Assembly: GCF_024521635.1 (NCBI RefSeq)
Contig: NW_026250410.1
Coordinates: 124,001-188,000, forward strand
DNA from: Tricharina praecox
Taxonomy: Eukaryota
Length of the DNA: 64,000 nt
Reading direction: 5' to 3'
Numbering within the stretch: position 1 is the stretch's first letter; each line of letters starts with the position of its first letter. The notes below the pieces were generated by a model that saw only the letters and a list, made by a program, of their open reading frames with translations, was not told where the DNA came from and made no database searches. The translations under genes were made by a program, and so were the position numbers. Below are positions 3,901 to 44,091 of this stretch, one piece after another.

Positions 3901-5651
3901 GGTACATATAGTACATACGATCTGTTGGATTGCGTCTTTGCCGTTGTCGAGCGAGGGAGGGAGGACATTCCTCCGCTCTTCCCACTGCCCCATCCGCACA
4001 CCGCCGGTTTCTTCCAGCGCCAGGAGGAGGGAAGGTGCGCTGCTTGCCTTGCTGGCTGGTTGGCTGGGTCGCTGGCAGTTGTTTGCTGCTACTGCTACTG
4101 TTGCTGGTGCTGATGCTGATGCCAAGTCGGGAGTTCGAGCGAAAGAGACACCCACCCGTGATCCGCTGTCTCAGCGGACCCCTTAAGTTGAACCTTGTGC
4201 ACGCCCAGATCACGCCCTGAACACGCCCAGATCACACCCTCCCCTGCCCGGATCGCTCGCTCGCTCCCCCAGATGGATGAAAGCACCACACGGATCCCGT
4301 ACCGGCCTCCCCGGCAGAGATGGGAGCCGCTGCGTGGTTGGTTCTGCGTACAAGGAGAACGAGGGGGAGGATGACAATTATGGCCACGATACCCACGCAC
4401 CCACTGACACTGCTGCTGTGTGAGCACTCGTGAATTTGTCACTGGCTGCTCTACTCAGCTCGGCTCGGCGGTACCGGTCCGCTCCGGGACTGGAATACGC
4501 TCGCTCTTCTCTCTTCTCGTGTCGTGTGTGTGGGTGAGTCCCATCTCGTAGTAACGAGGTAACGGAGTAACGGGACACGACAGCGGGGTGGCGGTTGTCT
4601 TTGCGTTGCATCGCAACGACGACGACGGTTAGTTTCATCTCGCTAACTACGTACCTACCTCGGGCTTGGGCTCGAGATTGGCAGGCAGGAAGTGAGAGTT
4701 GCAGCGCGAGCTGAGTGGGAGTTGATTGAGTGAGTGAGTGATAATTAGCAGCGGTGAGAATCGAGATGCAATGTCAGCTGGTTAGATACGAGCCTAAGTG
4801 AGATGGCTGACGAACGAGTCCGTAGCGGAGGCGGGGCGCTTACGTACCCCGATCCTTCCTCCTGCTCAGTGCTCGCTCGCTGCAGGAGGAGGTCCGATGC
4901 GAAGTGGGACGGATGGATGGATGGAGCGGTCGGATGGAGCGGTCGGACTCGGGGTCGGGAGTGGCGCCGTGCTCAGACAGCTATGGCAGTGGCATAGTGT
5001 CTCGCTCACTCACTCACTCACTCAGCAGGGTCACCACTGTGCTGCGAGTGACTGAATAGTACTGTATGGCAGCCGTACTTACATAAGATGTAGTCTTCTT
5101 GGATTGAATGCGAGTAAGTGACCATGATTAACCGGAAAACCGAGTGAGCGACTGTGTAGGATACCGCGGTCCGGCTAGACGAAACCGATCCCATGCCATC
5201 CCATCCGTTCGGGTCAGGTCTGGTCTGGTCTGAAGGTGCTGCACAAATACGGCGAGTCGAGTCTTTTGTAGCACGGAGGCTGGAAGGCTGGAAGGCTAGA
5301 TGTGGCCGTTATATTGGTTCACTGGTTGGGTTGGGAATATTGCCCAGCGTTTATTGCGTTTAGTCAGCGTCAATTCCTTCGTGGCGGTTTAGCACTGTCC
5401 ATGGCTTCTCATCAGAATCAGCCTCGTTAGCTCGAGTAAAGCCTTCAAGTCTTCAAGCCCATAGTGCAGCCCAGTCCGGCGACGGCGACGGCGACGACTA
5501 TCATCGCATCCTCTCAGAGGTCTGAGGCCCAGCCTTCATCTCGTCGTCTACAGGAGCTCTTTTCCTTTATAATCAGCCTTCTTTCTCATCTTTCTCATAT
5601 CAATACATCCATCAATTGAGTCAAGTCAAGTTCTTTTCTCAATTATAACAC

Positions 5652-5790
5652 GTCACGTGCTTCACTGCACGAGCGAGTGATTTCGCATGAATTGATGATG
5701 ACCCTCCCTCCAAGCAACAATCCAGCTACCTACCTAGGTAGCTAGCCACCCACTCCACAACTAAAAAAGGAAAAGCCGCAACCCGGGTTT
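5652..5790 (-). repeat. Partial copy of tRNA-like/SINE-like repeat module
   Basis: Direct repeat of ~6975-7115 (cacgtgct...ccctccaagcaacaatccagctacctacct...gaaaagccgcaacc). Confidence 0.75.
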
Positions 5791-5796
5791 GACGTA

Positions 5797-6580
5797 GATC
5801 GAGTGCAGACCGCAATTGATAAGAAGCCGATGTCATCCTCTCGCACAGCGGCCAGAGCAACAACATATGGCCAATGGCGCATGCATGCCTCGCCTGCATG
5901 CATGGCCGGAGGAAAGACCTTTGCTCTGAAAGGAAGAAGACCTCCGCGTATAACGTGGGGGAGATAGTAAACCACGTTATGCGTGTATAACTTGGGGCGG
6001 TAGTAGACCAAGTTACACCTTCTTTGGTTTTTTTGTTTCATCATCACGAAACCGTCTGCAGCCCGGTTTCGGAGATTCTTGGGCCTTGGCCATGCATGCG
6101 CGCGGCATGTCTCTCACACATGTGACGTGCATGGCCAGGAGGAAAGACCTTTGCCCTCTCACAGCAAAGGAAGAAAACCTCCGCGTATAACCTGAGGGGG
6201 TAGTAGACCAAGCTATACGCGTATAACTTGGGGGGTGGTAAACCAAGTTATACTTTCTTGGTTTTTTTCTTCCTCGTCAACACGAAACCGTCTGTCACCC
6301 AGTCTCGGAGAGGCCATCCAACGGGAGCAAGTCGGCTCTCACCCGACTTGGACTCCCGGAGGAAGGGGGAAAGAACTTTGCCGGCAGCGGAAGAGAAAAC
6401 CCCGTCCTTGGACCTTTTCTACTCAGCCTCGAGGGTTAGATCCGTCTATTGTCGCTGCAACCTGTCTACTTTGTAGACAGGTTGCACGGATCCCTCAGTT
6501 CCTCGCTGCTACGGCTGAGCAGGATAGCTCTGTAAGGTTATCCTGGAAGTAACAAGTGGGGGGGAAAGAACGACGTACCT
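5797..6580 (-). repeat. Hairpin-array element, copy 1 (candidate structured ncRNA or non-autonomous mobile element)
   Basis: Reverse complement is near-identical to 28533-29308 and 13394-14141 and contains more than 10 inverted-repeat stems. No credible ORF. Confidence 0.85.
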
Positions 6581-6949
6581 GGAAGTTTGATCTCGAGATC
6601 AGGTGGAAGGAAGGAAGGGAGGGAGTAAGGAAGGAAGGAATGAATGAAGGCGAACGGTCGACGAAGAAAGGAAGCTGTGATGGTTGTAAAGAGAAGGAGA
6701 GAAGGAGGAGCAGAAGGGGGGTTTTGTAGGTGATTTAGGAGTTGCCGGGTTCCAAGCTGGTTTTCGCCGCCGCCAGAGGACTAGACCCCACCAAGACTTA
6801 CTCATCCGGTGAATTGAGCAAGCAAACGTGACGACCTCCTAGCCGGAGACGGGTTGATTACCTCGCGCGCCGAAGGAGTCCCCGCCCGGAGTAGAAGAAG
6901 AAGCAAGAAACATAACTACCAATCCTCCTATCGATCTCTGTATATTCGA

Positions 6950-7161
6950 CAAATTCCCTGACACCCATTCCAAACCATCACGTGCTCCACTTCACGAACG
7001 AGTGTTTTCCCCTGATTTCGTGATGTTCCTCCCTCCAAGCAACAATCCAGCTACCTACCTAAGCTAGCCACCCACTCCGCAACAAGAAAAGGAAAAGCCG
7101 CAACCAGGGATTGAACCGCTGCGCAGCAAAAGAGCGTCCTCCCCAAGGCTGCTAGCCTTGT
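6950..7161 (-). repeat. tRNA-like/SINE-like repeat module (A-box-like, B-box-like, T-rich tract)
   Basis: Minus strand reads TAGCAGCCTTGG (7154-7143), then GGTTCAATCCC (7117-7107), then TTTTCCTTTTC. Homologous to 14623-14823 and 29314-29525. Confidence 0.6.
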
Positions 7162-7205
7162 CCCTAGGGTACAAGCAATGCGTTAATCACGCATTTAAAT
7201 GCACC
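7162..7205 (+). mobile_element. Solo terminal inverted repeat of the CCCTAGGGTACAAG family
   Basis: CCCTAGGGTACAAGCAATGCG matches the TIRs at 8421 and 10199. It truncates the adjacent tRNA-like module. No partner end found. Confidence 0.55.
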
Positions 7206-8236
7206 CGAAATGACGCAGAATGCGTTGCACAGTTTTGGTGACAGACACGCACCGTGAAAATTGCGTTGTTGCCAAAACTGCGTGAATTCTGCCAAAGCTT
7301 TACAGTTTACTCACAGCCTTCTTAGAATACGGGGCAGTCGATGCATGCCGAACTTGAGAGGCTGTCCGAGAGGCCTGCTCTCTCTCTCATCATCATGATC
7401 ACATGATCACATGATCAACCTCTACCTCCTCTCTCTCTCGTGATCACCATCGTCTACTCACACGGCCGGAGATTTAGGTACCCCTCCTCTACCTCCACTC
7501 CACTGCAGGATATTATCTGAGGTTGGATCTGTGGATGAGGATGATCAGTTATCCTATGTGACGACATTGAAGAAGCCTCATTCATGAGCAACTATTCAAA
7601 GAACGAGGAGGTGGGGGGGTGGGGGGGGGAACCTAAATTTCCGGCCGTGTGAGTAGTGTGTAGGTTATGATGCCGGGCCGATGTCAAGTCGTATGGTGAG
7701 GCGACTGTGCGGCTGGCTAAGGGATCCCTCAACTGCCCACCGCGCAACCATATGCGCGTCCACTGAACCTTATTTGTGCCAACATCTCCGGGCGTCCAAA
7801 GTTTGGCACCTCCTCTCTCTCTCTCTCTCAGCATCATCATCTACAGAATAGACGATCAACCTCTACCTCATCTCTCTCTACCTCATCTCTCTCTACATAG
7901 TTCCCACTTCAACGAGAGCACCAGATCCACGGGGAGGATATTTGGTTATTTAGTCTTGCGGGGCCACCGTAGCTAGGTTTGTGGCCTCGTCACCAAGAAG
8001 TTAAGCTCATTATTACAAGGTGTCCTTTTGTACACTCTCTCTTTTTCTTCTGAATCGTACACTGTCTGTACATTCGCATCAACATCTTTGCTAATTCTTC
8101 TCCAGTTCGGCCGGCGTGACGAGGATGGGAGCACACACAGAGGAGAGAGCGGAGATGGGAGGTTGACCGTCTATTAAATAAATGATGGTCAAGAAAGAAG
8201 AAGAGAATCCGTGGGTGCCGACTTAGGTCGCCCTGT

Positions 8237-8400
8237 CCTCATTTGGTCAACCCCGCCATGCCCACCAAAGCTGATGCCCACTACTACCACATTCGTTTCC
8301 TCTCGCTGACAGCTCCTCCTCTCACAGACAGCTCCTTCTCCACATCCCCCTCTCGCCTACAGCTCCATCACCACTTTGCCACAACAGTGTACAATCCGCG
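8237..8400 (+). repeat. Fragment related to the interior of the adjacent TIR element
   Basis: ccccgccatgcccaccaaagctgatgcccactact...cctctcgctgacagct matches 8860-9060. Confidence 0.6.
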
Positions 8401-8418
8401 GCGAGAAGGAGTTGTGTA

Positions 8419-10201
8419 GTCCCTAGGGTACAAGGAATGCGGCAAGCCGCAATTAAGCAAATGCGAGCCTGCCTGTAAACTGGCTCCTGACACAAAATGC
8501 GGACCATTTTCTCTGGTAATTCAGGCTTCTGCTAGTAAATTGGCCTAAGCTGATTCAATAGGCGGTAGGTAGTAATTGCGGCCAGCTCACGAGGGTCAAA
8601 TTGGGCTCTTATACTTAATATGGCTGTCAACACTCAATGTGTCGATTGGACAGAAGCCTAATATGGCGATGAGGTGTAAACTGGCGGTTAGCAGTAAATG
8701 CAATGTCTCTCCACCACTCTCTTCGGGCATCCGTTAGTAAAAAGACACCTTACCGCTCATCAGGCTTCCGGCTCGAGTGATGAATAGGCTTCGATTTATA
8801 AATGGACCATTTTCTTCTTATTCGGCCGACCCCGCCATGCGTGCCCCCCGCCATGTCCCCCGCCATGCCCACAAATGTTGATGCCCACTACTAACCACAT
8901 CCGCGTCCTCCCGCCGACGGGTTCTCCATCACTACGTCATCCTCTCACCGGCACTCACGGCTCCTCCGTCACTTCCTTCTCCATCTCTTCCTCCTCCATC
9001 TCTTCCTCCTCTCGCCAACATCTCCTCCTTCACTTCCTCCCCTCGCTGACAGCTATTCCATCAATTCCTCATTTTGCCAATAGCTACTCCTCTCCTCCTT
9101 CTCGCTAACAGCTTCTCCCCATCACTTCCTCATCTCGCTTCACCTCTCGCTAACAGCTCCTTCATCACTTCCTCCTCTCGCCGAGCCCTCATCCGCCACT
9201 CTACCACACAGTATTTCCCTTCGTCGTCGATCACCCTCTGTCTCTGGTCTTCCACAGCAGGTACGTATTGCGTTCCTAGACCTAGCTCGCTGCGGATACC
9301 CCACTGTCATCGCCGGTACTAACAGACTGTCTATTTAGCACGCCGGTCATGTTGAATCTGTGCTAAGGTACCCGGGTGAAGACCGAAGAGCGGGAAGAGC
9401 GGTGGGAGGCGGGGAGATGCGGGTTTCGGTTTGCATAGGAGCGGAGGGGAGGATATATATGGGCTGAGCAGCAGTAGTTATCATACATAGAACCACAGCA
9501 ATTTCAAGCAGCAGTTCGCGCTCGTGTAATTGTTGAGGTTAGCCATATAAGCTCCTAAAAGCCATAACATCAACTCTACCCTTTTATAGCCGTATCAGTG
9601 ACAGCGCCCTTTTGGAACCCTTGTATGAAGAGCCCTTTTAGACTAAAGAGCCCTTTAATAGCCGGAATAGAGCCCTTTTAGAGCCCTTTGACTGTCATCC
9701 TCCCAGGCCGTAATAACGCGGGCCCATTTAGTTAATACGGCAGTGCCTATGGAGTATTCCCGGCGGGATGAGTGGGAAGACCAAAAGCTAACAGCCAGCG
9801 CAGGACAGCAAGAACAGCGACGAGGATGACTACAGCGCCGGCGACGGAAATGTGCTATCTGCCGAGACTGGCGGAGTGTGGTATCCATGGCGGGGAGAGT
9901 GCGGTATGCAGCGAGGCAACTGTAGGAAGGTATAGGAGGACAAGGCACATATGTATCTAGTACTATCATAGATTAATGCAACGCATTTGATAACACTGCA
10001 AATTACCTAAAAGAACGCATTATACACCAGCCCGTTTTGCGACACCGTGGACTCCATTTTTCGACACCGTGGACTCCATTTTGTGACATCGGGAAAACAG
10101 ATTTTGCGACATCTGAAAACAGATTTTGCGACATTTTAGAATCACATTTTGCGGCATCAACGTATATCTCGGCGACAACGCATTCCTTGTACCCTAGGGT
10201 G
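8419..10201 (+). mobile_element. Non-autonomous DNA transposon A (~1.8 kb)
   Basis: Perfect TIR CCCTAGGGTACAAGGAATGCG at 8421-8441 and its reverse complement at 10179-10199. Subterminal repeats: TTTTGCGACA-like x6 at 10035-10160 and AGAGCCCTTT at 9629-9690. Internal TATA (~8797) and intron-like GTACGT...TACTAAC...TAG (9261-9338). No transposase ORF. TA lies outside both ends, so superfamily (hAT vs Tc1/mariner) is unresolved. Confidence 0.75.
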
Positions 10202-10721
10202 TACAGCCGATGGACCTCCTCACCACCTGGGAAATTCACTCCAACTGAGCCACGATCACTGCCTGGTGCTTTCGCCCCTCGCGGAGTTTTGAACTCGCGA
10301 GGTACGCATCGATACCTAACCCACCACATATAAACAAAATAATTGGACACGTCCAGCAACCCACCGCAATACGCAGAGAACCCCCCAAATTAGTATAAGA
10401 CTGCCGAATGGCGCTTTCATTTTCCCGTACGAACATATTGAGGACGTGTGCCAGACAACCACTACATTGCACACTTTCCCTCTCCATATCTTCCTCAACC
10501 CTTGTAGGTATCCTGCCACATGCACTGCAGCGGAGATATATTGATGTACAGATATGATTCATCGCCGACCGCGGATAGCACACTTGAACGGTTGTACGAG
10601 CGCGAACTGCTGCGTGTGATTGCTATCGTTCTAGCTACTGCTACATACTCGCCACATATATCCTCCCCTCCGCGCCTAAACAATCCGAACATATGTACCT
10701 GTTCCCCCCACTACCCCACTT

Positions 10722-12223
10722 CCTATGGTACAGGCGATGGGACAGGGGCCGTTTTGTTGAATGGGCACGCATTTAAATCGGCTCCCAATATTCTTTCTGG
10801 CTGTAATTAGCCTGTATTTGGCTGTGAAAAGGCTGTGAAAAGGCTGTATCCAGGCTTGAAAGATTAAAAGGGCTGTAAGGTATAAAGGGCGATACCTAGT
10901 ACATACGGCTAGAAAAGGGCACAGTTGCTCAACTGGCGTTGATAATAAATGGCTTTTAGGAGTTCATATGGCTGACATTGAACAATTATACGAGTGCAAT
11001 CTGCTGCTTCAGATTTCTGTGATTCTAGCTACTGCTGCTCGCCCAATATATATCCTCCCGTCTGCGCCCAAGCAAACCGAACCCTGCTTGTCCCCGCTTG
11101 TCCCCCGCTCGCCGGCTTCCACCCCGTCATCTTAGCACACATACAACATGACCGGCGTGCTCAATCGACTGTCTGCTAGTATCCGCAGCGAGTCAGGCCT
11201 GATACTGAAGGATGGCATAGGAGGAGAGGACGTACCGGTGACAAGAGGGCCAGGTGCTGTTAGACAGCAAAGGAGGACGAGACAGAGTGCTATTAGCGGC
11301 GATGACAGTGGGGTATCCGCAGCGAAGCAGGTGTGTAGGATAGCATAGGAGCATGATGCGTACCTGCTGTAAGAAGACCAGACACTGTCAAAGAGCGAGT
11401 GGCGGCGAGGGGGAATACTGTGGGGCGGACTGATGGGGGAGCTGTAGCCTGTCAGCGAGAAGAGGAAGTGATGCAGGAGCTGTGGGTGCGAGCAGGGTGA
11501 AGTGATGGAATAGCTGTCAGGGAGATGAAGTGATGGAGGAGTTGTAGGCGAGGGGAGGAAGTGACGGAAGAGCTGTTCGCGGGAGGAAGCGAATGTGATT
11601 AGTATGTAGTGGACTACAACGTTGGTGGGCATGGCGGGGGGCATGGCGGGGTCGGCCGAATAAGGAGAAAATGCTCCATTTATAAATCGAAGCCCATTTT
11701 CACTCAGGCCGGAAGCCTAATGAGCGGGAAAGTTGTCTTTTTATCAACGGATGCCCGAAGAGAGTGGTGGAGACATTGTATTTGCTGCCAATAGCCAATT
11801 TACACCTCAACGCCAAATCTGACCTCTGTCTATTCTTCACATTGAGTATAGACAGCCAAATTAGGCGAAAGAGCCCAGTTTGAGTATTGTAAACTGGCCG
11901 CAATTACTACCAACAGCCCATTGACTCGGCTCCGCCCAATATGACCATCGCAAACTGGCCCGCAATTACTACCAACCGCCTATTGACTAGGCTTCGCCCA
12001 ATTTGAGTATTGTAAACTGGCCGTAATTACTACTAACCCCCCATTGACTCGGCTCCGCCCAAATAAACATGGCAACTTGTGCCCTATGAGGAAAAAAGGC
12101 CAATTTACTGGCAGAAGCCTGAATTACCAGTGCAAACGAGCTGCAATTTGTGCTAATAGCCAGTTTATATGCAGACTCGCATTCAACCAAAGGGGCCTCG
12201 TCCCATTCCCTGTACCCTTAGGG
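10722..12223 (-). mobile_element. Non-autonomous DNA transposon B, diverged relative of A in opposite orientation
   Basis: Ends CCTATGGTACAGGCGATGGGAC and reverse-complement CCTAAGGGTACAGGGAATGGGAC. The interior 10900-11900 aligns as reverse complement to 8590-9600. Confidence 0.7.
11879..12062. repeat. Three ~60-bp tandem repeats inside element B
   Basis: aaactggcc(c)gcaattactaccaac..cc.attgact.ggct.cgcccaa occurs three times. Confidence 0.8.
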
Positions 12224-12369
12224 GTACTGCCACCTCACTCCACCGCTTCCCCACTACCAACTTCCGCATTCTCCGGCATTCACCCCGGCACCTTAGCACA
12301 CATTCAATAATACTCTCCCCGCCGCTGATACCACATTTTCTTCGCCGCGGATAGTACACTCCACCCATC

Positions 12370-12437
12370 GTCGCGGAATCATGAGAAAACACTCGTTCGC
12401 GGAGCACGTGATGTTGTGGAACGGGTGTCATGGAACT
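12370..12437 (+). repeat. 3' part of tRNA-like/SINE-like module
   Basis: ggaatcatgagaaaacactcgttcgcggagcacgtgatgttgtggaacgggtgtcatggaa matches 14759-14818 and 29459-29518. Confidence 0.75.
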
Positions 12438-12562
12438 GTTGAGGGCAGGGGAAGTAGGGCGCCTCATCGGACTGGTCGGTACCGGGGCTTTCACCTCGAC
12501 TGGCCAGGGCGGGCAGGAAAAATAGTGCGTTGGTTCGCCATAGTCTAGATCGCAGTCGACGC

Positions 12563-12946
12563 CAGTCGACGGCACTCGAGTATTTGTGCACTCCCGCAAT
12601 GATCACAGAGCCTGAACGAGGCTTTAATGGGGCCAAAATTACTCTCTCTCGTCGCCGGTGCTGCATGGGTGATGACGCGCTGGAGGCACTGGAATGTATC
12701 AAAAGCTGGCAATGGAATGGTCTTGTCGTTGGTACAAAGGGCGGTATCAAGGAGATGGGGACTATGCTAGTTGTACTGTACGAGTGGGATCTATGATAGC
12801 TGTACTATAGACGTATATAAAAGGTTCATCAGTGGCAAGTGCTTCTGACAGTGGTTCGTTCCTTCCATCTTAGTCCATAGTAGCTTTGGGTCGGCTGCTG
12901 TTACAGCATAAAAGTTGCACATGCGTGCTCTTAGGAGAGCATACTC
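12563..12946 (+). pseudogene. hAT transposase C-terminal dimerisation-domain relic
   Basis: ALEYLCTPAMITEPERGFNGAKITLSRRRCCMGDDALEALECIKSW matches the hAT dimerisation motif (LSIPAxSAExERxFS...LxxxxIEALECLKSW). The segment is absent from the homologous locus at ~28061. Confidence 0.8.
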
Positions 12947-14141
12947 TATATGGAGAGTAGCAAAGTTGCTCGCCACCATTTCACGTTTGTCTCTATTCCG
13001 CGCTGTGAATCGTATTCAATAATACTCACTCGCACTTCGAGTGACTCCGGGTGATGCCAAGCACATGCCGACACCTTGGAATGAAGCGGTTGTTTGCTGA
13101 AAAGCTAGCTTTGGAGTCACGGCTAGTGCGCTAGCAGTGGTTGTTTGGAATCTTACCCACTTCACTTATAAAATCTCACCTTTCCTCCCAACTTTTCCTC
13201 CCTCTCTCCTCCACACATCCAGAACCAACCGCTATCCAGAACTAATCGCTATCCAGAACAATCATTACCCACACATTAACCTCTTCTTCTTCTTTCCCGT
13301 ACGAGACTACCAGGTATGTACTTGTTGATTCATGCTACTGACTTATGATTAGTTTTCACGGTCCGATATCGGCCCCGAGGCCTACTCTTTGAGGTACGTG
13401 CTGTCTCCCCCCACCCTCTTTTTACTTCCAGGATAACCTTACAGAGCTATCCTGCTCAGCCGTAGCAGCGAGGAACTGAGGGATCCGTGCAACCTGTCTA
13501 CAAAGTAGACGGTTGCAGCGACAATAGACGGATCCAACCCTCGAGGCTGAGTAGAAAAGGTCCAAGGACGGGGTTTTCTCTTCTGCTGCCGGCAAAGTTC
13601 TTTCCCCCTTCCTCCGGGAGTCCAAGTCGGGTGAGAGCCGACTTGCTCCCGTTGGATGGCCTCTCCGAAACCGGGTGACAGACGGTTTCGTGTTGACGAG
13701 GAAGAAAAATCAAAGAAAGTATAACTTGGTTTACTACCCCCCAAGTTATATATAGAGGTTTTCTTCCTTTGCTGTGAGAGAGCAAAGGTCTTTCCTCCTG
13801 GCCATGCATGTCACATGTGTGAGAGACATGCCGCGAGCATGCATGGCCAAGGCCCAAGAATCTCCGAAACCGGGCTGCAGACGGTTTCGTGATGATGAAA
13901 CAAAAAAACCAAAGAAGGTATAACTTGGTATACTACCGCTCCAAGTTATACGTGTATAACGTGGTTTACTATCCCGCCATGTTATACACGGAGGTCTTCT
14001 TCCTTTCACAGCAAAGGTCTTTCCTCCGGCCATGCATGCAGTGAGGCATGCATGCGCCATTGGCCATATGTTGTTGCTCTGGCCGCTGTGCGAGAGGATG
14101 ACATCGGCTTCTTAATCGATTGCGGTCTGCACCCTCGATCC
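12947..14141 (+). repeat. Hairpin-array element, copy 2 (leader 12947-13431, array 13432-14141)
   Basis: Near-identical to 28061-29308. TATAAAA at 13167-13173. One GTATAAC hairpin is deleted relative to copies 1 and 3. Confidence 0.85.
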
Positions 14142-14622
14142 ACGGCTGCTTCCCGGCGTCTCCGTGGTTTTTAGTTGTCAAATATACTGATATTGATAGG
14201 AGTATAGGTAGCAAGATTTGTTGCTTGCTTCTTCGTCTACTCCGGGTCGGTGCCCTTCCATATATACAGAATATGTCTGTCATTGAAAGTTAGACCCCCC
14301 GGCGAGACCGGACAGCAGAACACAAATCCTCCTCCGGATTTAGTTCGCATGACCTAATCCTTGACTCCTTCAAAACATTGCTTGTTGCAGCTTCACCATC
14401 GTCTTACAGTGGACATGAGGAGAGATCCTTCATATGCTCCGGACGCCGTAATTTGACAGAATTAGTGGTGATGCCGTGTTGTAGGTAGCAAGTGCTGCAG
14501 TGTCATCTTCTCTTTTCTATGGTGGAGGAGGTTGCAATTCTAAAAGCGAGGAAGTCACCAGCAGAAATCATGGCTCAGTTGGAGCGAATTTCCCAGAAGG
14601 TGGGGGGTCAGCACGCCCCAAG

Positions 14623-14823
14623 CCTTAGCTGTTACAAGGGTAGCAACCTTGGGGAGGACGCTCTTTTGCTGCGTTTCAAGCCTGGGTTGCTGCTTTACTT
14701 TTTCTTTTGCTGGAGTGCCTGGCTAGCTGGACTGTTGCTTCGAGGGGAGGATCATCACGGAATCATGGGAAAACACTCGTCGTGAAGCACGTGAGGGTTT
14801 GGAACGGGTGTTATGCAATTAGT
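14623..14823 (+). repeat. tRNA-like/SINE-like repeat module
   Basis: tgttacaagggtagcaaccttggggaggacgctcttttgctgcgtttcaagcc... homologous to 29314-29525. Confidence 0.7.
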
Positions 14824-26002: not shown

Positions 26003-27259
26003 GATGCTCCGTCAGCAATGCCGGCGGCGACGGTATCCGGCAGATGGGTGGCAGACGTGGGGGGGGTAGGTGGGAAGGGAGGGTGTTTGCGGTAGCTGTA
26101 GGTGATTGAGGGGGATAGGTGTGTCGATGAGATGGGATGCTGCCGGAACGGGATGGAGAAGGGCAGCAGTCGTAGTGGGATGATTGCTTCACTGTGGGGG
26201 TGAAAGAGGGGGATGGAGTCTGTTGTGATGCAGGTTGCGAGCAGTGTTTTGCAGCAGTGCGGTTGCTGTGGTTGCTTAGTGTAGTGGGTGGGCGGCGGTA
26301 AAACGGGCGAGACTTCTTCCGGCTAGTGTCTACGTCAGCGCGGGGAGGAGGAGGGGGAGGGATGACTGCGATGGTTCGACGGAGGAACCGCCACGCCGAA
26401 GCTCTCGATTACCACCCTATCAGGGACGGAGAAGAAGAGAATGGGGAAAAGCTAGAGACTATTGAATAATCGGAGGGACTTTTTCGGCGGGTGTCGTACA
26501 CAGGATTAGGTCACATTTTATGCACTGGAAAGCACGAGCAAGCCAGGCCAGTCATCTACGAGAGTTTACGCTACCGGACTGACCCCGGTCCGACGATATC
26601 CAGCTCGGTTTCACCACGCGATCGAGAGTCAGAGGAATATTCACCGGATACCAAACATGTATTTTACCAATCTACAGCTTCATGGAAGCTTCTGTTGATA
26701 CCTGTACAATTTCGCCGGCTAGGACTTGTCTGAAACGCAGCCTCTCTGGATTTGGTAAATCACGGAGTATTCTATGTAGAAAGTGTGTTTCGAGATTCGG
26801 AGAACGGTTTTCATCCCGGCGTCCCTGAAATCGAATTCCATTCGCCGCTTCGATTTGTGTCCATTCTCTGAACTCCATAGAGCATTAAAGTTCCTCAAAG
26901 TTGCTCGAGGAGCAGTTGGTTGGAAATTAACGTCATGTCGGCGGGTCTTCACTGACGATCACTCACGCCAAGCAATATACCAAGGATGCGAGCACCTGCT
27001 AGATCTAGCGCCCAGGCATTCACCTTTCATGACCCGACCTGCCAGTAGTTTTGCAGTTGAACCAGTTATCCAGTTCAACCGTTTGCTCGGTCGGTTCGTT
27101 CTTAACTGTTTGTTTGTTTGGTGGATTCTGCGTATCCAGTTAGTTGGAATGTTGCTCTTCGAAATCTGCTTCATTTGTCAGTTCTATGTAACCGGTGCAA
27201 GCTCGATCGAGTGCTAGCCTGGAAGCATAAGCGTGGGCAAGCTTGGTACTCCTAACGTC

Positions 27260-27390
27260 AACTGTCAGGACTTGCTGTCAATTCCAGCCATGTCATCGGA
27301 ACCGAAACGCATGTTCTCTGATCATCCAGGTGACCGTCACTCGCCGCACTCTGATACAATTGAGGATTTGGATTACCTAAAAAGCTACCA
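27260..27390 (+). pseudogene. hAT transposase dimerisation-domain relic
   Basis: QDLLSIPAMSSEPKRMFSD...DTIEDLDYLKSY. Confidence 0.75.
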
Positions 27391-27956
27391 CTGCAATTTG
27401 ATATGTTCTAGGTCGCTGAAACGCCAGATGACTCCGTTTCCAGATTGGCCGGCCCATTCGTAGACTGGCGAGACCGGCGAGACTTCATGGCAAGTCAGCT
27501 CCATGAGAATATGCGAGTTGACTAGAAAGGCATCGAGGAGGAAGAAGAATAACGACAACCAATTTCGACAGGTCCGCTGATGAGTTGTGTAGAGTATTCA
27601 GCTCGGCGCTGGCCCGCTACTTCCACGCTGTTCATGTGGTTGTTGTAATCATCTTCCGTTCTGTGTCTCCAAGACCCGGCGGACAGCAGCAGCATTGGTA
27701 CTGGTTGTTCGCGGCTTGCGGCTTGTGCCGTAGCTTGAGTGTGGCCTCGTTCCGCGGATGAACTGTTGTAAGAAAGCGGACAATATTGCTATCCTCCCAT
27801 GGTCCTCAGGAGCTTCAAGGCAACGACAAAGCTGAAAGATCGCCGAACGAGTGCAGTGGGTGTCAACTCTGTGGCCTGCTGAAGACCGCCAATCGAGTGG
27901 ATGCGAGATGTGTATAGCCAGTCGAGGATGTAGCCGGCGTCACAGATGTAGGCAGC

Positions 27957-29308
27957 GGCGCCACATCGGGCTGGGTAGTATCGGGGTCTCAACCCTCGGC
28001 CGACCAGAGTGGGCAGGAAAGGAGTGCGACGGTTCGCCATAATCTACACTGCAGTCGACGCATATGGAGAGTAGCAAAGGTGCTCGCCACCATCTCACGT
28101 TTGTCTCTGTTCCACGTTGTGGGATCGTATTCAATAATACTCACTCGCACTTCGAGTGACTCCGGGTGATGCCAAGCACATGCCGACACCTTGGAATGAA
28201 GCGGTTGTTTGCTGAAAAGCTAGCGTTGGAGTCGCGGCTAGTGCGCTAGCAGTGGTTGTTTGGAATCTTACCCACTTCACTTATAAAATCTCACCTTTCC
28301 TCCCAACTCTTCCTCCCTCTCCTCCACACATCCAGAACCAACCGCTATCCAGAACCAACCGCTATCCAGAACCAATCGCTATCCAGAACCAATCGCTATT
28401 CAGAACAATCAGTACCCATACATTAACCTTTTCCTCTTCTTTCCCGTGCGAGACCACCTACTTGTTGATTCATGCTACTGACTTATGATTAGTTTTCACG
28501 GTCTGATATCGGCCCCGAGGCCTACTCTTTGAGGTACGTGCTCTCTCCCCCCGCCCTCTTTTTACTTCCAGGATAACCTTACAGAGCTATCCTGCTCAGC
28601 CGTAGCAGCGAGGAACTGAGGGATCCGTGCAACCTGTCTACAAAGTAGACAGGTTGCAGCGACAATAGACGGATCCAACCCTCGAGGCTGAGTAGAAAAG
28701 GTCCAAGGACGGGGTTTTCTCTTCTGCTGCCGGCAAAGTTCTTTCCCCCTTCCTCCGGGAGTCCAAGTCGGGTGAGAGCCGACTTGCTCCCGTTGGATGG
28801 CCTCTCCGAGACTGGGTGACAGACGGTTTCGTGTTGACGAGGAAGAAAAAAACCAAGAAAGTATAACTTGGTTTACCACCCCCCAAGTTATACGCGTATA
28901 GCTTGGTCTACTACCCCCTCAGGTTATACGCGGAGGTTTTCTTCCTTTGCTGTGAGAGGGCAAAGGTCTTTCCTCCTGGCCATGCACGTCACATGTGTGA
29001 GAGACATGCCACGAGCATGCATGGCCAAGGCCCAAGAATCTCCGAAACCGGGCTGCAGACGGTTTCGTGATGATGAAACAAAAAAACCAAAGAAGGTGTA
29101 ACTTGGTCTACTACCGCCCCAAGTTATACACGCATAACGTGGTTTACTACCCCCCCACGTTATATGCGGAGGTCTTCTTCCTTTCAGAGCAAAGGTCTTT
29201 CCTCCGGCCATGCATTCAGTTGAGGCATGCATGCGCCATTGGCCATATGTTTTTGCTCTGGCCGCTGTGCGAGATGATGATATTGGCTTCTTAATCGACT
29301 GCGGTCTG
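27957..29308 (+). repeat. Hairpin-array element, copy 3 (array 28572-29308)
   Basis: 27957-28061 matches 12457-12562 and 28061-29308 matches 12947-14130. The 17-bp tandem TCCAGAACCAAYCGCTA is expanded at 28331-28408. Confidence 0.85.
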
Positions 29309-29313
29309 AAGGT

Positions 29314-29525
29314 CCTGAGCTGTTACAAGGATAGCAACCTTGGGGAGGACGCTCTTTTGCTGCGGTTCAAACTCGAGTTGCTACTTTCCTTTTCATTTCT
29401 TTCTTCTGGAATGGCTAACTGGCTAGGTAGATTGTTGCTTGGAGGGAGAATCATCACGAAATCATGGGAAAACACTCGTTCGTTGAGCACGTGATGTTTT
29501 TGAATGGGTGTCATGGAATTAATTC
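29314..29525 (+). repeat. tRNA-like/SINE-like repeat module directly downstream of hairpin array
   Basis: TAGCAACCTTGG at 29332, GGTTCAAACTC at 29364, then a T-rich tract. Confidence 0.65.
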
Positions 29526-29587
29526 AAAAGATCCTCACTACAACACACTCGCATCCTAGTTTCGCCAAAACGCCAAGCGCATGTAGT

Positions 29588-30196
29588 TATGGTGCCTGCG
29601 GTTTTGGAGGCCCATCTTTTCGCGATGCCTATTTCAAGCCAGCTAGCAGCCGACAGCAGATATGAAACCCAGGGTGTGGAAAAGTCACAGGTTAGTTATG
29701 TACCTTCCTATGGATTTGGATTCCTGGACATATGTTGGTGTGAAGTTCTTTTACAAGAAGAAGCCCTAGGTTTTGTATGCAAATCAAGCTCCAGTGCACC
29801 AAACTCTCACGAGTGGCGACTAATTTTCACTCTAAAGTCGAGTGTAGTGTAGTGGTCACACGTACTCGGTCGGAGTATGAACTTAAAGTTCGGAGAACTT
29901 TTCGGACCCGGAACTCAGCTGTTCAACTACCATCCGAAATACAGGCCGCCATATAGAGAATTCACCAGCAGATAGCTTGTCCCAGGATATGAATAGTCAA
30001 CCACCGGCAGTGATTGATTCTCATAGTGGAAAGGAACAGGTGTAGGTATACTAGTCACCGTGGAGTAGTGAAGTTGCATGTTTGAGAGTTGTCAGGTGAT
30101 CATTTTTGTTCTTGTGGTGGGGTCGGCTGTTGCCATGTAAACTTTCTGGGTGAAGAGCTAAAACCCACTGTGCCTTTCTAGACCGCAGGCACCATA
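29588..30196. mobile_element. MITE D, copy 1
   Basis: TIRs TATGGTGCCTGCGG ... CCGCAGGCACCATA. Reverse-complement homolog at 43662-44091. This copy has ~200 bp extra at ~29820-30025. Confidence 0.8.
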
Positions 30197-30558
30197 TATG
30201 TTCTTGGTGCGATTTCCTATGTTTTGGTAGGCGGCGGCGGTGTGAAGGGTGGTTCTAAACTCTTGCCAAGTTATCATTCCTCTAGATGACTATTTCTATT
30301 GAAAGGAAATGTAGTTCATTGCATACCGGGGACGGGCGAATGCTGTTGCTATCAAGATTTAGAACCTTTGCAAGAAAGTGGGTGGAATCACTCGACATCA
30401 CTCACCCCACTAGGGGATTGCAGGAACGGCCCTTCAAAAGTCTACCTTTAACCACCTTCTACTTCTCCTCCTACTTCATCCTACCAACCACTCGACACCA
30501 TAGAAACAGCATCCTACATCCCGAGTCTCCCATCACCACCACCACCACCACCATCAAA

Positions 30559-31107
30559 ATGTCCACCCACCCATCCAATCCGCCCCACCCGCCCAACCCG
30601 CCCATCAACGAGGACCCCCAGGTTATCGACGAAAAGGTGTTCATAGCTCTCCTGGAGCAGCAGATCCTCCGGCAGTTGCACGAACACGAGGAGCTCGTTC
30701 AGTTACACTCGGCCCGCGCCCCCTCCCCGCACGACGAGCCTGCATTCTCCCTGCACCGACACCACCACCAGCAGCTCCTATCGCAGCAGCAAGCGGCTCT
30801 CGACCGGTACCTCTCGCGAGACCTGATCGAATACATTCCGGCCTCCGTCCTCGTCGCCGAGCAGGCAGCGCTCGCTCGCCAAGTCCAGGAGCTGGAGCAA
30901 ACGCGCGTCTATGAGCTTACCGCGGCCGCTAACGAAAGGACCTGCTGGGTAAGGGTGTGCGCTACCCAGGCCTTCGCGAGAAAGGTCCGCCGGTGCGTCG
31001 CGGCCGCGGTCTTGGCTTGCGGCGTGGCGATTTTTGTACGTGACTTTGGGTGGAGGGGGCTGGCGATCGTGGTTTTTGCTGCGTTGGCGGTGAGGTTTGG
31101 GGCTTAG
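30559..31107 (+). CDS. Orphan protein with helical core and C-terminal hydrophobic hairpin (182 aa), paralog 1
   Basis: ATG in accatcaaaATGtcc context, shared with the paralog at 43121. LDRYLSRDLIEYIPASV aligns to FDRFLGEDVAAYTPAAV. Confidence 0.7.
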   Translation: MSTHPSNPPHPPNPPINEDPQVIDEKVFIALLEQQILRQLHEHEELVQLHSARAPSPHDEPAFSLHRHHHQQLLSQQQAALDRYLSRDLIEYIPASVLVAEQAALARQVQELEQTRVYELTAAANERTCWVRVCATQAFARKVRRCVAAAVLACGVAIFVRDFGWRGLAIVVFAALAVRFGA

Positions 31108-31234
31108 TAGGGTGGGGACCGGAGTGGTGAGGTGCGGAATGGTTACAATGGCTTGGGCGTTTGGTGGAAAGATTTGTGTGGAGAGTGGTGGGCTGAGGAA
31201 TACAATGGACTTGGCTTGCGGTTGGGTACTGTGT

Positions 31235-31271
<37 letters not shown>

Positions 31272-32252
31272 TGTGACCTGTCTCGCCGTGGTCTCTTCAG
31301 ACGCATGGATTTACGGATGCTCATATGTAGTAGGTAGTTGCCCAAGCAGCGAGCGCGAAACTAATGATTGAGGATATTTTCCTCTCTTCATATCCAGAGG
31401 CTCCCACATAGGGATGTGAGCGAGTATCCTCGAGTGATACCCGTCAAAACTCGGGAGGATTCCGAATTCCTGATTACTCTAGCACAGCGAGAGATCACCA
31501 AGCACTATGTAGTTCCAAGTTGGAAAGACCCTCCAAAGTCAAGACCCGCAGAGTATATGCGTCGGGACGAGTGGCATTCTACCAAATTACTCTACCATCA
31601 ACGACGAGTGATATCGAACGCATCACATGATACACCGATTCCTTTCTCGATTCCTCTTACCAAGCGTCAAGTCTCAAGAACTTCCAAGTCCCCCCTCTCC
31701 CTCCCCCTCCCCCTCCCCCCTGCAAGTCAATGAGTCAATAAGTCCACACACCAACGTTACCACCAGTCGAAAATCCAGTTCCAGTTCCAGTTCCAGTTTT
31801 CATTCCGCTACACCCGCACCACACCTTAGTACCTATCCCCTCTAAGTCCAATAGATCAAAGAAAGAAGTACTTACCTAGGTACCGTATACCTAGCAAGGT
31901 AAAAAACACACACAATTCGGATACCCGTCAGCCCATGATCAAGAGAACGAAAGAGCCATCAAATGCCAAGGATAGGTATCGTACAATGTAGCGGTAAAAG
32001 TAAAAGTAAAAGTAAAAGTAAAGTAAAGTAAGTCCCCCCATAAACAAAAACTCAAATAGATAAAAAAGTGAAACACAAGAATCAAAAGAAGAAGAAGAAG
32101 CAGAAACTGTTTACAAATGACCCGGCCCGTTGTAGGTACTTTTCCCTTTTCCCTTCTCCCGTCCCGTCACAAGTCACAAACATCAGCATAGCGTAAGTAA
32201 ACATAAACATCAATCATACATAGCGTACATAAGTAACAAACATCACATCACA

Positions 32253-41700: not shown

Positions 41701-42022
41701 CGCTCTGACTGCCACGACTCACGAGCACCAAAACTCGGCCATGAAAGCGCAGCCGAGAAGGTGGGAATTCTCCTCTACTACACAAGTAAACACAGCATCC
41801 TCGATGACTTGATTCGGCGGGCATCTATGGGCGTTCTGGTTTCTGCTGTATGGTGGCTGGAGGGTAATTCCAACTGAAATACATCGTGCTTCAGGATCTC
41901 TCGCTGTGCTCGAGTAACCAGGAATTCAGATTTGCCCCGAGTTTTGACGAGCATCACTCGAGGACACTCACTCCCATCCCTACATGGCAGGATCCGGACG
42001 GGCAGAGAGGAAAATATCCTCG

Positions 42023-42306
42023 CAAGTGTTCTCCATAGTCCGATCCGGACGAGACGGACTGCCAAGTCCCAGTCCCGTCCGTGCCTCTTGGTTGGAGGAC
42101 GGGACAAAAGTCGTCCGTCCCGTCCCGTCCGCCAATCTGCTGGACGGGGTTGGACTGCAGTCGACTGCAGTCCGTCCTGTCCGTCCTGACTGGTAGACTA
42201 GTCCGTCTGAACACTACCTCCAGACGGACTGCCAGGATACAGCCCAGTCCAGTCCGGGGCTCAGGACGGACGGACGGACTGACGGACTGGACTATGTAGA
42301 ACACTG
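42023..42306. mobile_element. hAT-type MITE with degenerate 8-bp TSD
   Basis: TIRs CAAGTGTTCTCCATAGTCC and reverse-complement CAGTGTTCTACATAGTCC. Flanks TATCCTCG and AAGCCTCG. Empty site present in the paralogous segment at ~31361-31380. Interior rich in GTCC/GGAC motifs. Confidence 0.8.
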
Positions 42307-42518
42307 AAGCCTCGGTCATTAGTTTGCACTCGCTGCTTGGAGAATTACTATGGGAATCCATAAATCAATGGGGCTGAAGAGAAGAAGCTCAGTATAGAGC
42401 ACTAGCAATGCCACTCAGAGACAGGTCACATCACACGCGCACACGCACACAGAAGACAGCACCCTCTCCCAACCAAGACCGTTTTATTCCTCGTCACATC
42501 ATCTGCACCCAAAGCCCT

Positions 42519-43121
42519 CTACAAGAGTCTAAAGTGCACCAACAGAGTAAAGAAGCCCACAGCCGCCAGGCCATGGAGCGCAAAGTACGCCACAAGCGTG
42601 ACTCCTCCGCAGACCTTGTTCCTGAAGTCCTTCTGGGCTTGCACGCTTCTCTCGCGCACGCTTCCCTCGCCGGCGCTCACTTTCTTAACTCTATCAGCAG
42701 CCCTCTCCGCAGCAAGCGCCTTCTCCAGCTGCTCCCTTGCCTGCATCACAGCGGCGGGAGTGTAAGCGGCGACATCTTCGCCAAGGAAGCGGTCGAAGAC
42801 CTGCTGCTCGTACTTGTAGAGGCGCTGGCGGCGGAGACGAACGTGGCGCTCGAGAAGTGCCTTGCCGGTAGGCAATGACTCCACCAGCTCCGTTACCTCG
42901 CGGTCGAGAGCCCGCTTCTTCTGGATCAGGTGGTGGAAGTCTTGCACTAGCTGGATTGAGCGCTGCTCCAGCTCTGCTACAGCCGCTGGGGTCGCCGGCT
43001 TGTCAGTGGTCTGGGTTGCGACGGCGGGCGGATCGACAGCCTGCGTATCCGAGTTGGAAGGCGGGTTGGGCGGGTTGAACTGCTTGGAGGTGTCGGACAT
43101 CCTGGAAGCGGTGTCGGACAT
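42519..43121 (-). CDS. Orphan coiled-coil protein with C-terminal hydrophobic segment (200 aa), paralog 2
   Basis: accatcaagATGtcc start. NPPNPP motif. Lies in the inverted duplicate of 29588-31630. Confidence 0.7.
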   Translation of the reverse strand: MSDTASRMSDTSKQFNPPNPPSNSDTQAVDPPAVATQTTDKPATPAAVAELEQRSIQLVQDFHHLIQKKRALDREVTELVESLPTGKALLERHVRLRRQRLYKYEQQVFDRFLGEDVAAYTPAAVMQAREQLEKALAAERAADRVKKVSAGEGSVRERSVQAQKDFRNKVCGGVTLVAYFALHGLAAVGFFTLLVHFRLL

Positions 43122-43661
43122 CTTGATGGTGGTGCGACCGGTGGCTGGAGACTCGTGTGTTAGGATGTCGTTTCGTTTCGTTTCGGTAGTGTTGAATGAT
43201 TGGCTGGCAGGATGGTAGAGGAGTAGAACCAAAAGCTGGTTAAAATCTCAGTCGACCTCAGCTTTTGAAGGGTTCGTTCTTGAAATGCGCTAGCGGGGCG
43301 AGTGATCACGAATGATTCCACTCACCCTCTCGCAAAGATTCTAAATCTTGATGGTAACCGCATGCTCCCATCTCGACATGCAGTAAACTCTCCCAGTCAA
43401 TGGCGACAAGTTCCCTGGAGGTATAGTATCCTGACAAGAGTTTAGAGCATGTAGCTTTCACACTGCCGGCAGTGCCAGTTGCGAAGGAATCTTCGAAGCA
43501 ATTCTCATGAGATTTGAGTGCTTCATCAAACCTCAATCCCCTTCCACGAGTAATTTCCAGTGTGTTTGAAACAGTTATCGGTGAAGAAAGTAAGAAATGT
43601 TATGATGTAAGAGATAGAGAGCTACATACTTCTTACTTGGTATGAAAGTAAAGTACACATA

Positions 43662-44091
43662 TATGGTGCCTGCGGCCTAGAAGGGCACAGTGTTTTTTTT
43701 AGCTCTCCACGCGGAAAGTTTACATGACTTTACATGGAAACAGTCGGCCCCACCAAAAAGATCAAAAAAGATCACCTAACAACTCTCGAACCTACAACTT
43801 CACTACTCGGCGATGACTAGTATACCACACCCGTTCCTTTCCACTCGCCACTCGTGAGAGTGTGGTGCGCCGCAGCCTGATTTCCCTACAAAACCCAGTG
43901 TTTCCTCTTGTCAAAGATCTCTACACCCACATCACATTGGTCTAGGAATCCAAATCCATACATAGGAAGGCACATAGCCTGTGACTTTCCCCCACCATGG
44001 GTTTCACATCTGCTGCTGGCTGCTGCCGGCTGCTAGCTGGCTTGAAAATAGAACCGCAAAAAGATGGGCCTCCAAAAGCGCAGGCACCATA
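43662..44091. mobile_element. MITE D, copy 2 (inverted relative to copy 1)
   Basis: TATGGTGCCTGCG ... CGCAGGCACCATA termini. Interior aligns to the reverse complement of 29588-30196. Confidence 0.8.

Follow-up and report, generated by a model that had tools for sequence, protein, structure and literature searches.

A 64,000-nucleotide stretch of Tricharina praecox DNA (contig NW_026250410.1, positions 124,001 to 188,000; hereafter the window) contains a repeat of about 0.78 kb, here called the core, which is present in three copies 93-97% identical to one another and is built almost wholly of hairpins. Our preferred reading, held tentatively at a probability of roughly 0.45, is that the core is a selfish, dispersed, lineage-specific, non-coding repeat whose hairpins work while it is copied through a single-stranded stage, and that transcripts possibly splice it out. 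The window is nuclear ascomycete DNA; its large open reading frames (ORFs) carry AIM3/BBC1, SH3, Rtr1/RPAP2 and NDT80/PhoG domains, and the protein clusters nearest to the BBC1 domain are mainly from Ascomycota. All results are based on these 64 kb and on contigs of four public sequencing runs over positions 27000-30500; sequence comparison within the window covers the three core copies A, B and C, and the contigs of the runs were used as summary tables. The copies and their principal internal features are as follows (a slash in AG/GTACGT marks the boundary of the candidate splice donor).

28532-29308, plus strand: core copy C, the main finding, beginning AG/GTACGT with the GT at 28534
13392-14144, plus strand: core copy B, from self-comparison and nhmmer
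5793-6580, minus strand: core copy A, in reverse orientation, from self-comparison and nhmmer
28596-28694, plus strand: long nested hairpin, with CTCAGCC/GGCTGAG outside GGATCCG/CGGATCC outside a perfect 14-bp stem (28628-28658)
28803-28986, plus strand: internal tandem unit 1, matched part, with a CGAGACTG hairpin, an A-rich tract, two GTATAAC hairpins and a nested GGAGG/CCTTTGC hairpin
28861-28893 and 28896-28929, plus strand: twin GTATAAC hairpins h1 and h2
29039-29214, plus strand: internal tandem unit 2, matched part, 82.9% identical to unit 1
29096-29129 and 29132-29165, plus strand: twin GTATAAC hairpins h3 and h4

Copy C is 96.8% identical to copy A (5806-6580) over 778 columns, including a 607-nt stretch at 99%, and about 93-95% identical to copy B; an nhmmer profile made from the three copies found no fourth full copy within the window. 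The first-pass annotation, made from the letters alone, had already noticed the three near-identical copies, placing two of them at 13432-14141 and 5797-6543, near the extents given here. Its tandem duplication of about 240 bp is likewise recovered, the two units aligning over 187 columns with a period of 236 bp, and a third, partial and more diverged unit can be read by eye upstream of the pair. In copy B a single base pair of the 14-bp stem has been deleted, and a deletion of about 35 bp has fused two GTATAAC hairpins. The absence of a credible ORF was confirmed: none of the 12 ORFs inside core copies matched Pfam at E<=0.01, a protein search with a 118-aa ORF spanning the core gave no match, and reading frames are disrupted by indels among the copies. 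Identity among the core copies (93-99%) contrasts with 77-83% in equivalently placed flanks, the individual values being 79.8-82.8% for module X and 77.6% for module M1 (both described below) and 73-83% for the arms of an inverted duplication. The right edge of the high-identity block is common to the copies, at 29308 plus about 15 nt in A and B, which suggests that the core is a discrete unit. Judged from the sequences, conversion from other family members, recent replacement and constraint are all open readings of the contrast between core and flanks.

The hairpin content of the core is far outside what its base composition would give. Counting in a strand-neutral way, we found 13 centres with perfect stems of at least 7 bp and loops of 3-45 nt, compared with 1.54 ± 1.37 in dinucleotide shuffles (maximum 5 in 200) and a median of 2 in 785-bp tiles of the window. 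Every stem listed in the first-pass annotation was found, namely the 14-bp stem and the GGATCCG and CTCAGCC stems nested around it, CCTTTGC, the four of GTATAAC type and the further stems CAAGTCGG, CGAAACCG and TGGCCATGCA, so its picture of a repeat made almost entirely of hairpins holds. The comparison of folding energies with shuffled sequence that it had suggested gave, for the 890-nt stretch 28536-29425, z = -7.67 on the plus strand and -5.94 on the minus strand. Local minimum free energies (MFEs, in kcal/mol) on the plus and minus strands were -267.6 and -266.2 for C, -261.4 and -260.2 for B, and -274.2 and -277.5 for A. The stems fall into about 12 kinds unrelated to one another in sequence, which argues both against a by-product of one duplicated palindrome and against binding sites for a dozen different dimeric DNA-binding proteins; single-strand folding would be the simplest common denominator. 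Neither RNA versus DNA nor the choice of strand is discriminated by any test made.

Among 11 GTATAAC-type hairpins, 97.7% of 88 cells pair, a level that 6 of 500 shuffles attain, compared with 22-47% in slid controls; one column shows a T-A to G-C exchange, and on the plus strand there are seven G.U cells to two C.A cells. Where a Watson-Crick pair of C is altered in A or B, the outcome is G.U in four cases and A.C in six. Such counts were rejected as evidence for a plus-strand RNA, because the excess of 7 to 2 is met by 4 to 6 elsewhere and the strand energies are equal. The covariation check, made on three copies only, yielded one pair with a clear, two-sided compensatory change and no more. 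In Rfam (version 15) searches, no hit reached E<=1 across 27500-30500 or the gathering score anywhere in the window, in line with the earlier remark that no known non-coding RNA (ncRNA) is recognisable, and no hammerhead was found within the same limits. A small nucleolar RNA (snoRNA) was also considered and rejected, as the C/D-box-like motifs near 29270-29306 are not kept in A and B and Rfam is empty there.

Evidence that the core belongs to a larger family came from the sequencing runs, principally run X1, the best-matching soil metagenome. Summed contig depth, which is not equivalent to copy number, was distributed in X1 as follows.

27000-27935, unique flank: 7-10
27936-28052, hAT-derived module M1: 401
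28053-28520, module P: 19-54
28521-28988, core: 187-292
28989-29105, core: 59
29106-29339, core: 166-179
Module X, first half: 106
Module X, second half: 34

Most of the core thus stands at 166-292 against 7-10 in the unique flank (contigs of two soil-metagenome runs), which is 20-40 times the flanks and 5-10 times module P, and the high-depth stretch extends from 28521 to about 29456. The 343 pieces in X1 comprise 74 at >=99% identity, 78 at 95-99%, 106 at 90-95% and 85 below 90%, and one variant within the core is carried by up to 15-18 distinct contigs. Contig joints skip 240-242 nt in X1, X2 and X4, and others go back 170 or 586 nt, indicating copies with one tandem unit fewer or with extra units. 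Two further organisms have pieces at 85-95% identity, and run X5, presumed to be an RNA run, has only short and mainly diverged contigs. Depth, the many variant contigs and the joints that change unit number together indicate a dispersed and variable family that has multiplied beyond its neighbours. A 26-base pattern present in all six window units had no locus in metagenome contigs of the Joint Genome Institute (JGI), and a degenerate GTATAAC-hairpin pattern gave 19 loci there, none with BLASTN similarity to 27500-30300; these are unrelated perfect palindromes.

We then compared copy C with the family majority, using the 16 core variants among 40 listed of 267 variable places; in 15 of the 16, the alternative letter holds more than half of the X1 depth. 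With these 15 majority bases placed in copy C, the local MFE fell by about 21-24 kcal/mol, on the plus strand from -267.6 to -288.3 and on the minus strand from -266.2 to -290.2. Random sets of same-type substitutions elsewhere changed it by +10.1 ± 6.9 (minimum -6.5), and none of 150 matched the majority set. With pairing partners read by eye, seven majority states (28793, 28810, 28813, 29098, 29130, 29133 and 29165) re-create or lengthen Watson-Crick pairing, and three make a pair weaker (28635; 29275, which belongs to a weak stem; and 28987, which turns into a wobble). Among the window copies, substitutions fall alike on paired and unpaired positions (9/447 versus 6/299 between A and C, 19/422 versus 11/286 between B and C, and 14/422 versus 12/285 between A and B). 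The folding gain suggests that the source sequence was more palindromic than the decayed copies in the window; taken with the equal substitution rates, it points to hairpins that were selected in the source and copies that decay neutrally, a pattern expected of a selfish element rather than of a host gene kept at each locus. The earlier proposal of a folded single strand as the functional form therefore survives in part, favoured by the dozen unrelated stems and the better-folding majority, without its specification as RNA rather than DNA or as one strand, and the more specific idea of a structured RNA or small-RNA precursor is not supported, since the strands fold alike and paired and unpaired positions change at equal rates.

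At the upstream side, three-way homology starts at AG/GTACGT (28532 in C, 13392 in B and, on the minus strand, 6580 in A). The sequence AGGTACGT occurs six times over the two window strands, and three of these occurrences are the copy starts. Ahead of the donor lie CT-rich leaders of two unrelated kinds, module P in B and C and P' in A; the leader of A ends in CAG before the donor, and over the first ~30 nt past it A and C are just ~70% identical. The features of this side are as follows.

28062-28533 (copy C) and 12948-13393 (copy B), plus strand: module P, 97-100% identical in most 60-nt bins and lower at indels
13314-13352, plus strand: candidate 39-nt intron in module P of copy B, GTATGT ... 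CTGAC ... TAG

Module P contains TATAAAA (28282-28288), a CT-rich tract and a 17-nt tandem repeat of 4.5 copies (28330-28406), and ends in TTTGAG before the donor; judged by these motifs, it looks like a promoter and leader of RNA polymerase II. The 17-nt unit, just downstream of the TATA box, reads ATCCAGAACCAACCGCT. In copy C the donor of the 39-nt intron is gone through a 7-bp deletion. Block-shuffled copies of the 64-kb window contain the strict intron pattern 2.4 times per strand, so that about 0.02 would be expected in 470 bp. Because a good donor stands behind a CT-rich leader at each copy, transcripts crossing a copy may remove the core as a long intron. Three contigs join P at 28317-28318 straight to 28548-28550 or 28458, with the donor missing, at weak joints with sides of 22-25 nt.

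Downstream of the core lies module X, an older repeat that is also found upstream of two copies.

29314-29521, plus strand: module X of copy C, a ~210-bp older repeat after the core
14623-14821, plus strand: module X downstream of core B
12367-12435: partial X upstream of core B
6948-7161, minus strand: module X upstream of core A
5668-5792, minus strand: partial X downstream of core A

In copy C, module X holds a pyrimidine tract, GCTAAC (29414-29419), TAG at 29424-29426 and 29428-29430, an ATG (29464-29466) and CACGTG. The combination of GCTAAC and TAG is canonical in one of the five X copies (C only), and the ATG has a good context in a reading frame that is not conserved. The 3' end of X is sharp in four copies and reads ...GGGTGTCATGGAAT. 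The sequence between core B and its X (14130-14622) is confined to B, save for 76 bp (14175-14250) common to copy A.

None of the usual transposon termini could be assigned. The first-pass annotation had seen no terminal inverted repeat (TIR), and indeed no inverted repeats bound any copy or module; the start of P and the end of X, tried as TIRs, were rejected for want of an inverted repeat across the boundaries, and no 8-bp target-site duplication (TSD) was found at any candidate boundary of the three copies. Module X was rejected as a long terminal repeat (LTR), given ends that are not TG...CA, the same bases after X on both sides of the core, and no primer-binding site (PBS) or polypurine tract (PPT); the downstream X is not preceded by a purine tract, and the window yielded no tRNA gene. 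The suggestion of a large retrotransposon derivative (LARD) or retrozyme thus failed, X being without LTR-like ends and the copies without PBS or hammerhead. Helitrons have a 5' TC and a 3' CTRR preceded by a hairpin just before the 3' end; the core as delimited here ends in ...GCGGTCTG(C/A)A and X in ...CATGGAAT, neither of them CTRR when read by eye.

The surroundings of the copies consist of old repeat debris, including remnants of hAT transposons.

12458-12793, plus strand: remnant of the hAT transposase C-terminal dimerisation domain upstream of B (PF05699, E 9.7e-8)
27218-27460, plus strand: weaker hAT C-terminal remnant upstream of C (tblastn 27239-27418)
27957-28061, upstream of C: recurrence, at 77.6% identity, of module M1, the first ~105 nt of the B-side hAT remnant

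Ten long hAT-like proteins used in tblastn matched the window only at 12545-12784 and 27239-27418, and a search for longer proteins matching the hAT ORF found none; the 236 protein matches of the remnant at E<=0.001 are, among the best, mostly 75-240 aa long and consist of the C-terminal domain alone. The interval 27936-28052 has the top summed depth, 401 in X1 and 73 in X5, and most contigs at M1 leave the window sequence after 28041-28046 for another common sequence; it is part of a much more abundant, hAT-related repeat. At B the modules recur in the order X, M1, hAT C-terminus, P, core, X, M1. An old inverted duplication spans about 5.6-14.8 kb (about 5650-14820) with its centre near 10250; its inner arms, at 8251-9565 and 10949-12227, share 73-83% identity, and cores A and B lie in opposite arms. 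A tandem array of three 61-62-bp units (11873-12062) adjoins one arm. With the copies within 24 kb and A and B in opposite arms, the copy number seen in the window is partly due to local segmental duplication.

The preferred reading of a selfish repeat can be set out as follows. What multiplied would be the core of ~0.8 kb, perhaps together with ~110 nt from the start of module X. Its hairpins would be a property of the source, or master, sequence, needed when copying exposes one strand, as RNA or as single-stranded DNA; not being maintained by the host at each locus, they would slowly be lost from inserted copies. The number of ~236-bp multi-hairpin units varies among copies. The window copies sit in older debris (hAT remnants, module X and the large inverted duplication) and resemble one another far more closely than their flanks do, which recent arrival or conversion from other family members would explain. 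Several points weigh against such a repeat. The three copies lie within 24 kb, and each is followed by module X, which is odd for independent insertions; they are without TIR, TSD, LTR ends, PBS or poly(A), and with no transposon hallmark mobility is inferred rather than demonstrated. The majority G at 28635 opposes an A at 28651 in the 14-bp stem, uncompensated among the listed variants, and the majority test used a subset, the best-supported variants of one run. The copy estimate is a summed contig depth that possibly includes other organisms, and the best-matching run, X1, may be the source sample of the window.

The donor at the core edge raises the possibility, which we consider the leading rival though on the whole unlikely, that the mobile unit is an introner-like element (ILE), a spliceosomal intron of ~0.8-0.9 kb from the GT at 28534 to the AG at 29426 or 29430 that spreads into transcribed DNA, with hairpins that would make it compact for a fungal spliceosome used to short introns or would serve reverse splicing. 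All three copies start with AG/GTACGT behind two unrelated CT-rich leaders, a TATA box and leader precede B and C, a canonical-looking 39-nt intron lies upstream in B, C has the pyrimidine tract, GCTAAC and TAG ~105 nt past the core, and the high-depth stretch runs roughly from donor to acceptor. Published fungal ILEs, in the part of the account drawn on here, are multi-copy, long for introns and stably folded with compensatory mutations (PMC3609843), and the want of TIRs and TSDs recalls the sister (stw)introns of Hypoxylaceae, as far as the cited part of that work goes (PMC8469720). However, the branch point is canonical in one of five X copies, A and C diverge over the first ~30 nt past the donor, three contigs, weakly joined at P, have no donor, none of the three copies lies within a recognisable coding gene, and the unit would be several times longer than ILEs, which are about twice a normal intron, besides carrying a minisatellite. 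A bolder form of the same idea, unlikely as we judge it, is a "giant introner": a mobile ascomycete intron of ~0.8-0.9 kb with its own donor, a dozen hairpins bringing its ends together for a spliceosome adapted to short introns, an RNA or single-strand intermediate by which it multiplies, no need of TIRs or TSDs, and an expanding and contracting minisatellite. If true, it would extend ILEs to an undescribed size and architecture and offer a tractable case of how they move.

A host gene family for structured ncRNA, or for precursors of snoRNAs or small RNAs, under purifying selection at every locus, would account for a core conserved at 93-99% within duplications whose flanks are at 77-83%, for the many unrelated hairpins, for the pairing, T-A/G-C exchange and G.U excess of the 11 GTATAAC hairpins, and for the TATA box and leader ahead of B and C. 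It is not supported, and we regard it as improbable, given the empty Rfam searches, strands that fold equally, equal substitution rates at paired and unpaired positions, window copies that fold worse than the family majority (decay rather than maintenance), a variable number of tandem units and C/D-box-like motifs not kept in A and B. The hAT remnants upstream of two of the three copies, and a module order at B resembling that of adjoining deletion derivatives, would also suit the internal or subterminal part of a non-autonomous hAT element whose palindromes are binding or end-recognition sites for a transposase encoded elsewhere. We give this little chance: candidate boundaries lack TIRs and 8-bp TSDs, copy A has no adjoining hAT piece, core depth is 5-10 times that of module P, the link to the hAT remnant, and the hAT pieces (77%) are far more diverged than the core. 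Local segmental duplication of a palindrome-rich intergenic regulatory region, with neither mobility nor an RNA role, is prompted by three copies within 24 kb, by A and B in opposite arms of the inverted duplication and by the X that follows every copy; as the whole explanation it is highly improbable, in view of metagenome contigs with many variants and contexts at 20-40 times the depth of the flanks, an upstream context of A unrelated to that of B and C, and a core much younger than its flanks.

Fungal repeat families that have neither TIRs nor LTRs and encode nothing are poorly understood, and how ILEs multiply is an open question. Three oddities, namely ~12 unrelated stems in 0.8 kb, a family majority that folds better than the copies and a splice donor at the edge, make the core a candidate system in which to ask whether repeats of this sort spread by virtue of single-strand structure. 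Even as mere transposon debris, it would be a useful entry for repeat libraries, preventing false ncRNA calls.

Elsewhere in the window, an inverted pair of segments, 29588-31535 (plus strand) and 41858-44091 (minus strand), is ~80% identical, with moderately raised summed depth in the metagenome contigs. In each segment an ORF without a Pfam match would encode a small, hydrophobic-tailed protein (30286-31107, plus strand, and 42522-43247, minus strand; 31% identity over 102 aa). A second hairpin-dense patch at 42072-42293 contains 12 perfect stems of at least 7 bp in 500 bp; the tile 42001-42500, considered as a relative of the core, was rejected as an unrelated GGAC/GTCC simple repeat. A coding-looking, degenerate tandem repeat at 58482-58745, with spacings of 24, 36 and 48 nt within the ORF 58034-59374 (plus strand), would encode a repeat protein rich in Gly, Pro, Thr and Met.

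Several known systems share some of these properties. LARDs, terminal-repeat retrotransposons in miniature (TRIMs) and retrozymes have LTRs with TG...CA ends, a PBS and a PPT, and retrozymes carry a hammerhead in their repeats. Like them, copies A and B present a non-coding interior between ~200-bp direct repeats, here module X; unlike theirs, X is without TG...CA ends, PBS or purine tract, and Rfam finds no hammerhead. Non-autonomous hAT elements and miniature inverted-repeat transposable elements (MITEs), including Ds-like deletion derivatives, have TIRs and a TSD, of 8 bp for hAT. The core resembles them in being non-coding, multi-copy and beside transposase remnants, with short motifs in both orientations, but it shows neither TIRs nor an 8-bp TSD and is far commoner and younger than the adjoining hAT pieces. 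Bacterial repetitive extragenic palindromes (REPs) and their composites, BIMEs and REPINs, are built of prokaryotic units of 20-40 nt mobilised by Y1 transposases. By analogy only, they too are dispersed mosaics of short palindromes whose strands fold equally, a property tied in their case to single-strand transposition; we know of no Y1-type enzyme or link for the fungal core.

Introner-like elements of fungi were reportedly treated by van der Burgt et al. in 2012. According to the portion of Collemare et al. (2013, PMC3609843) used here, they are multi-copy, about twice the normal intron length and stably folded, with compensatory mutations and fast degeneration. ILEs lie within protein-coding genes, in contrast to the core, which measures 0.78 kb, or 0.9 kb if taken from the donor as far as the acceptor, stands outside recognisable genes in all three copies, and has a 236-bp minisatellite and a branch point that is not conserved. 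The symmetrical sister (stw)introns of Hypoxylaceae, in the part of Fekete et al. (2021, PMC8469720) relied on, have proliferated without flanking duplications, and one pair of 45-55-nt terminal inverted repeats gives each a single long duplex; as described there, this differs from the dozen independent short hairpins of the core, which has no terminal inverted repeat. Within the same limits of that source, strong internal symmetry, the lack of flanking duplications and a structure suspected to aid proliferation are common to both. With ILEs, the core shares its multi-copy and non-coding nature, an unusually stable predicted fold with some compensatory changes, the absence of TIRs and TSDs, a good donor at its 5' edge, and copies that degenerate after insertion.

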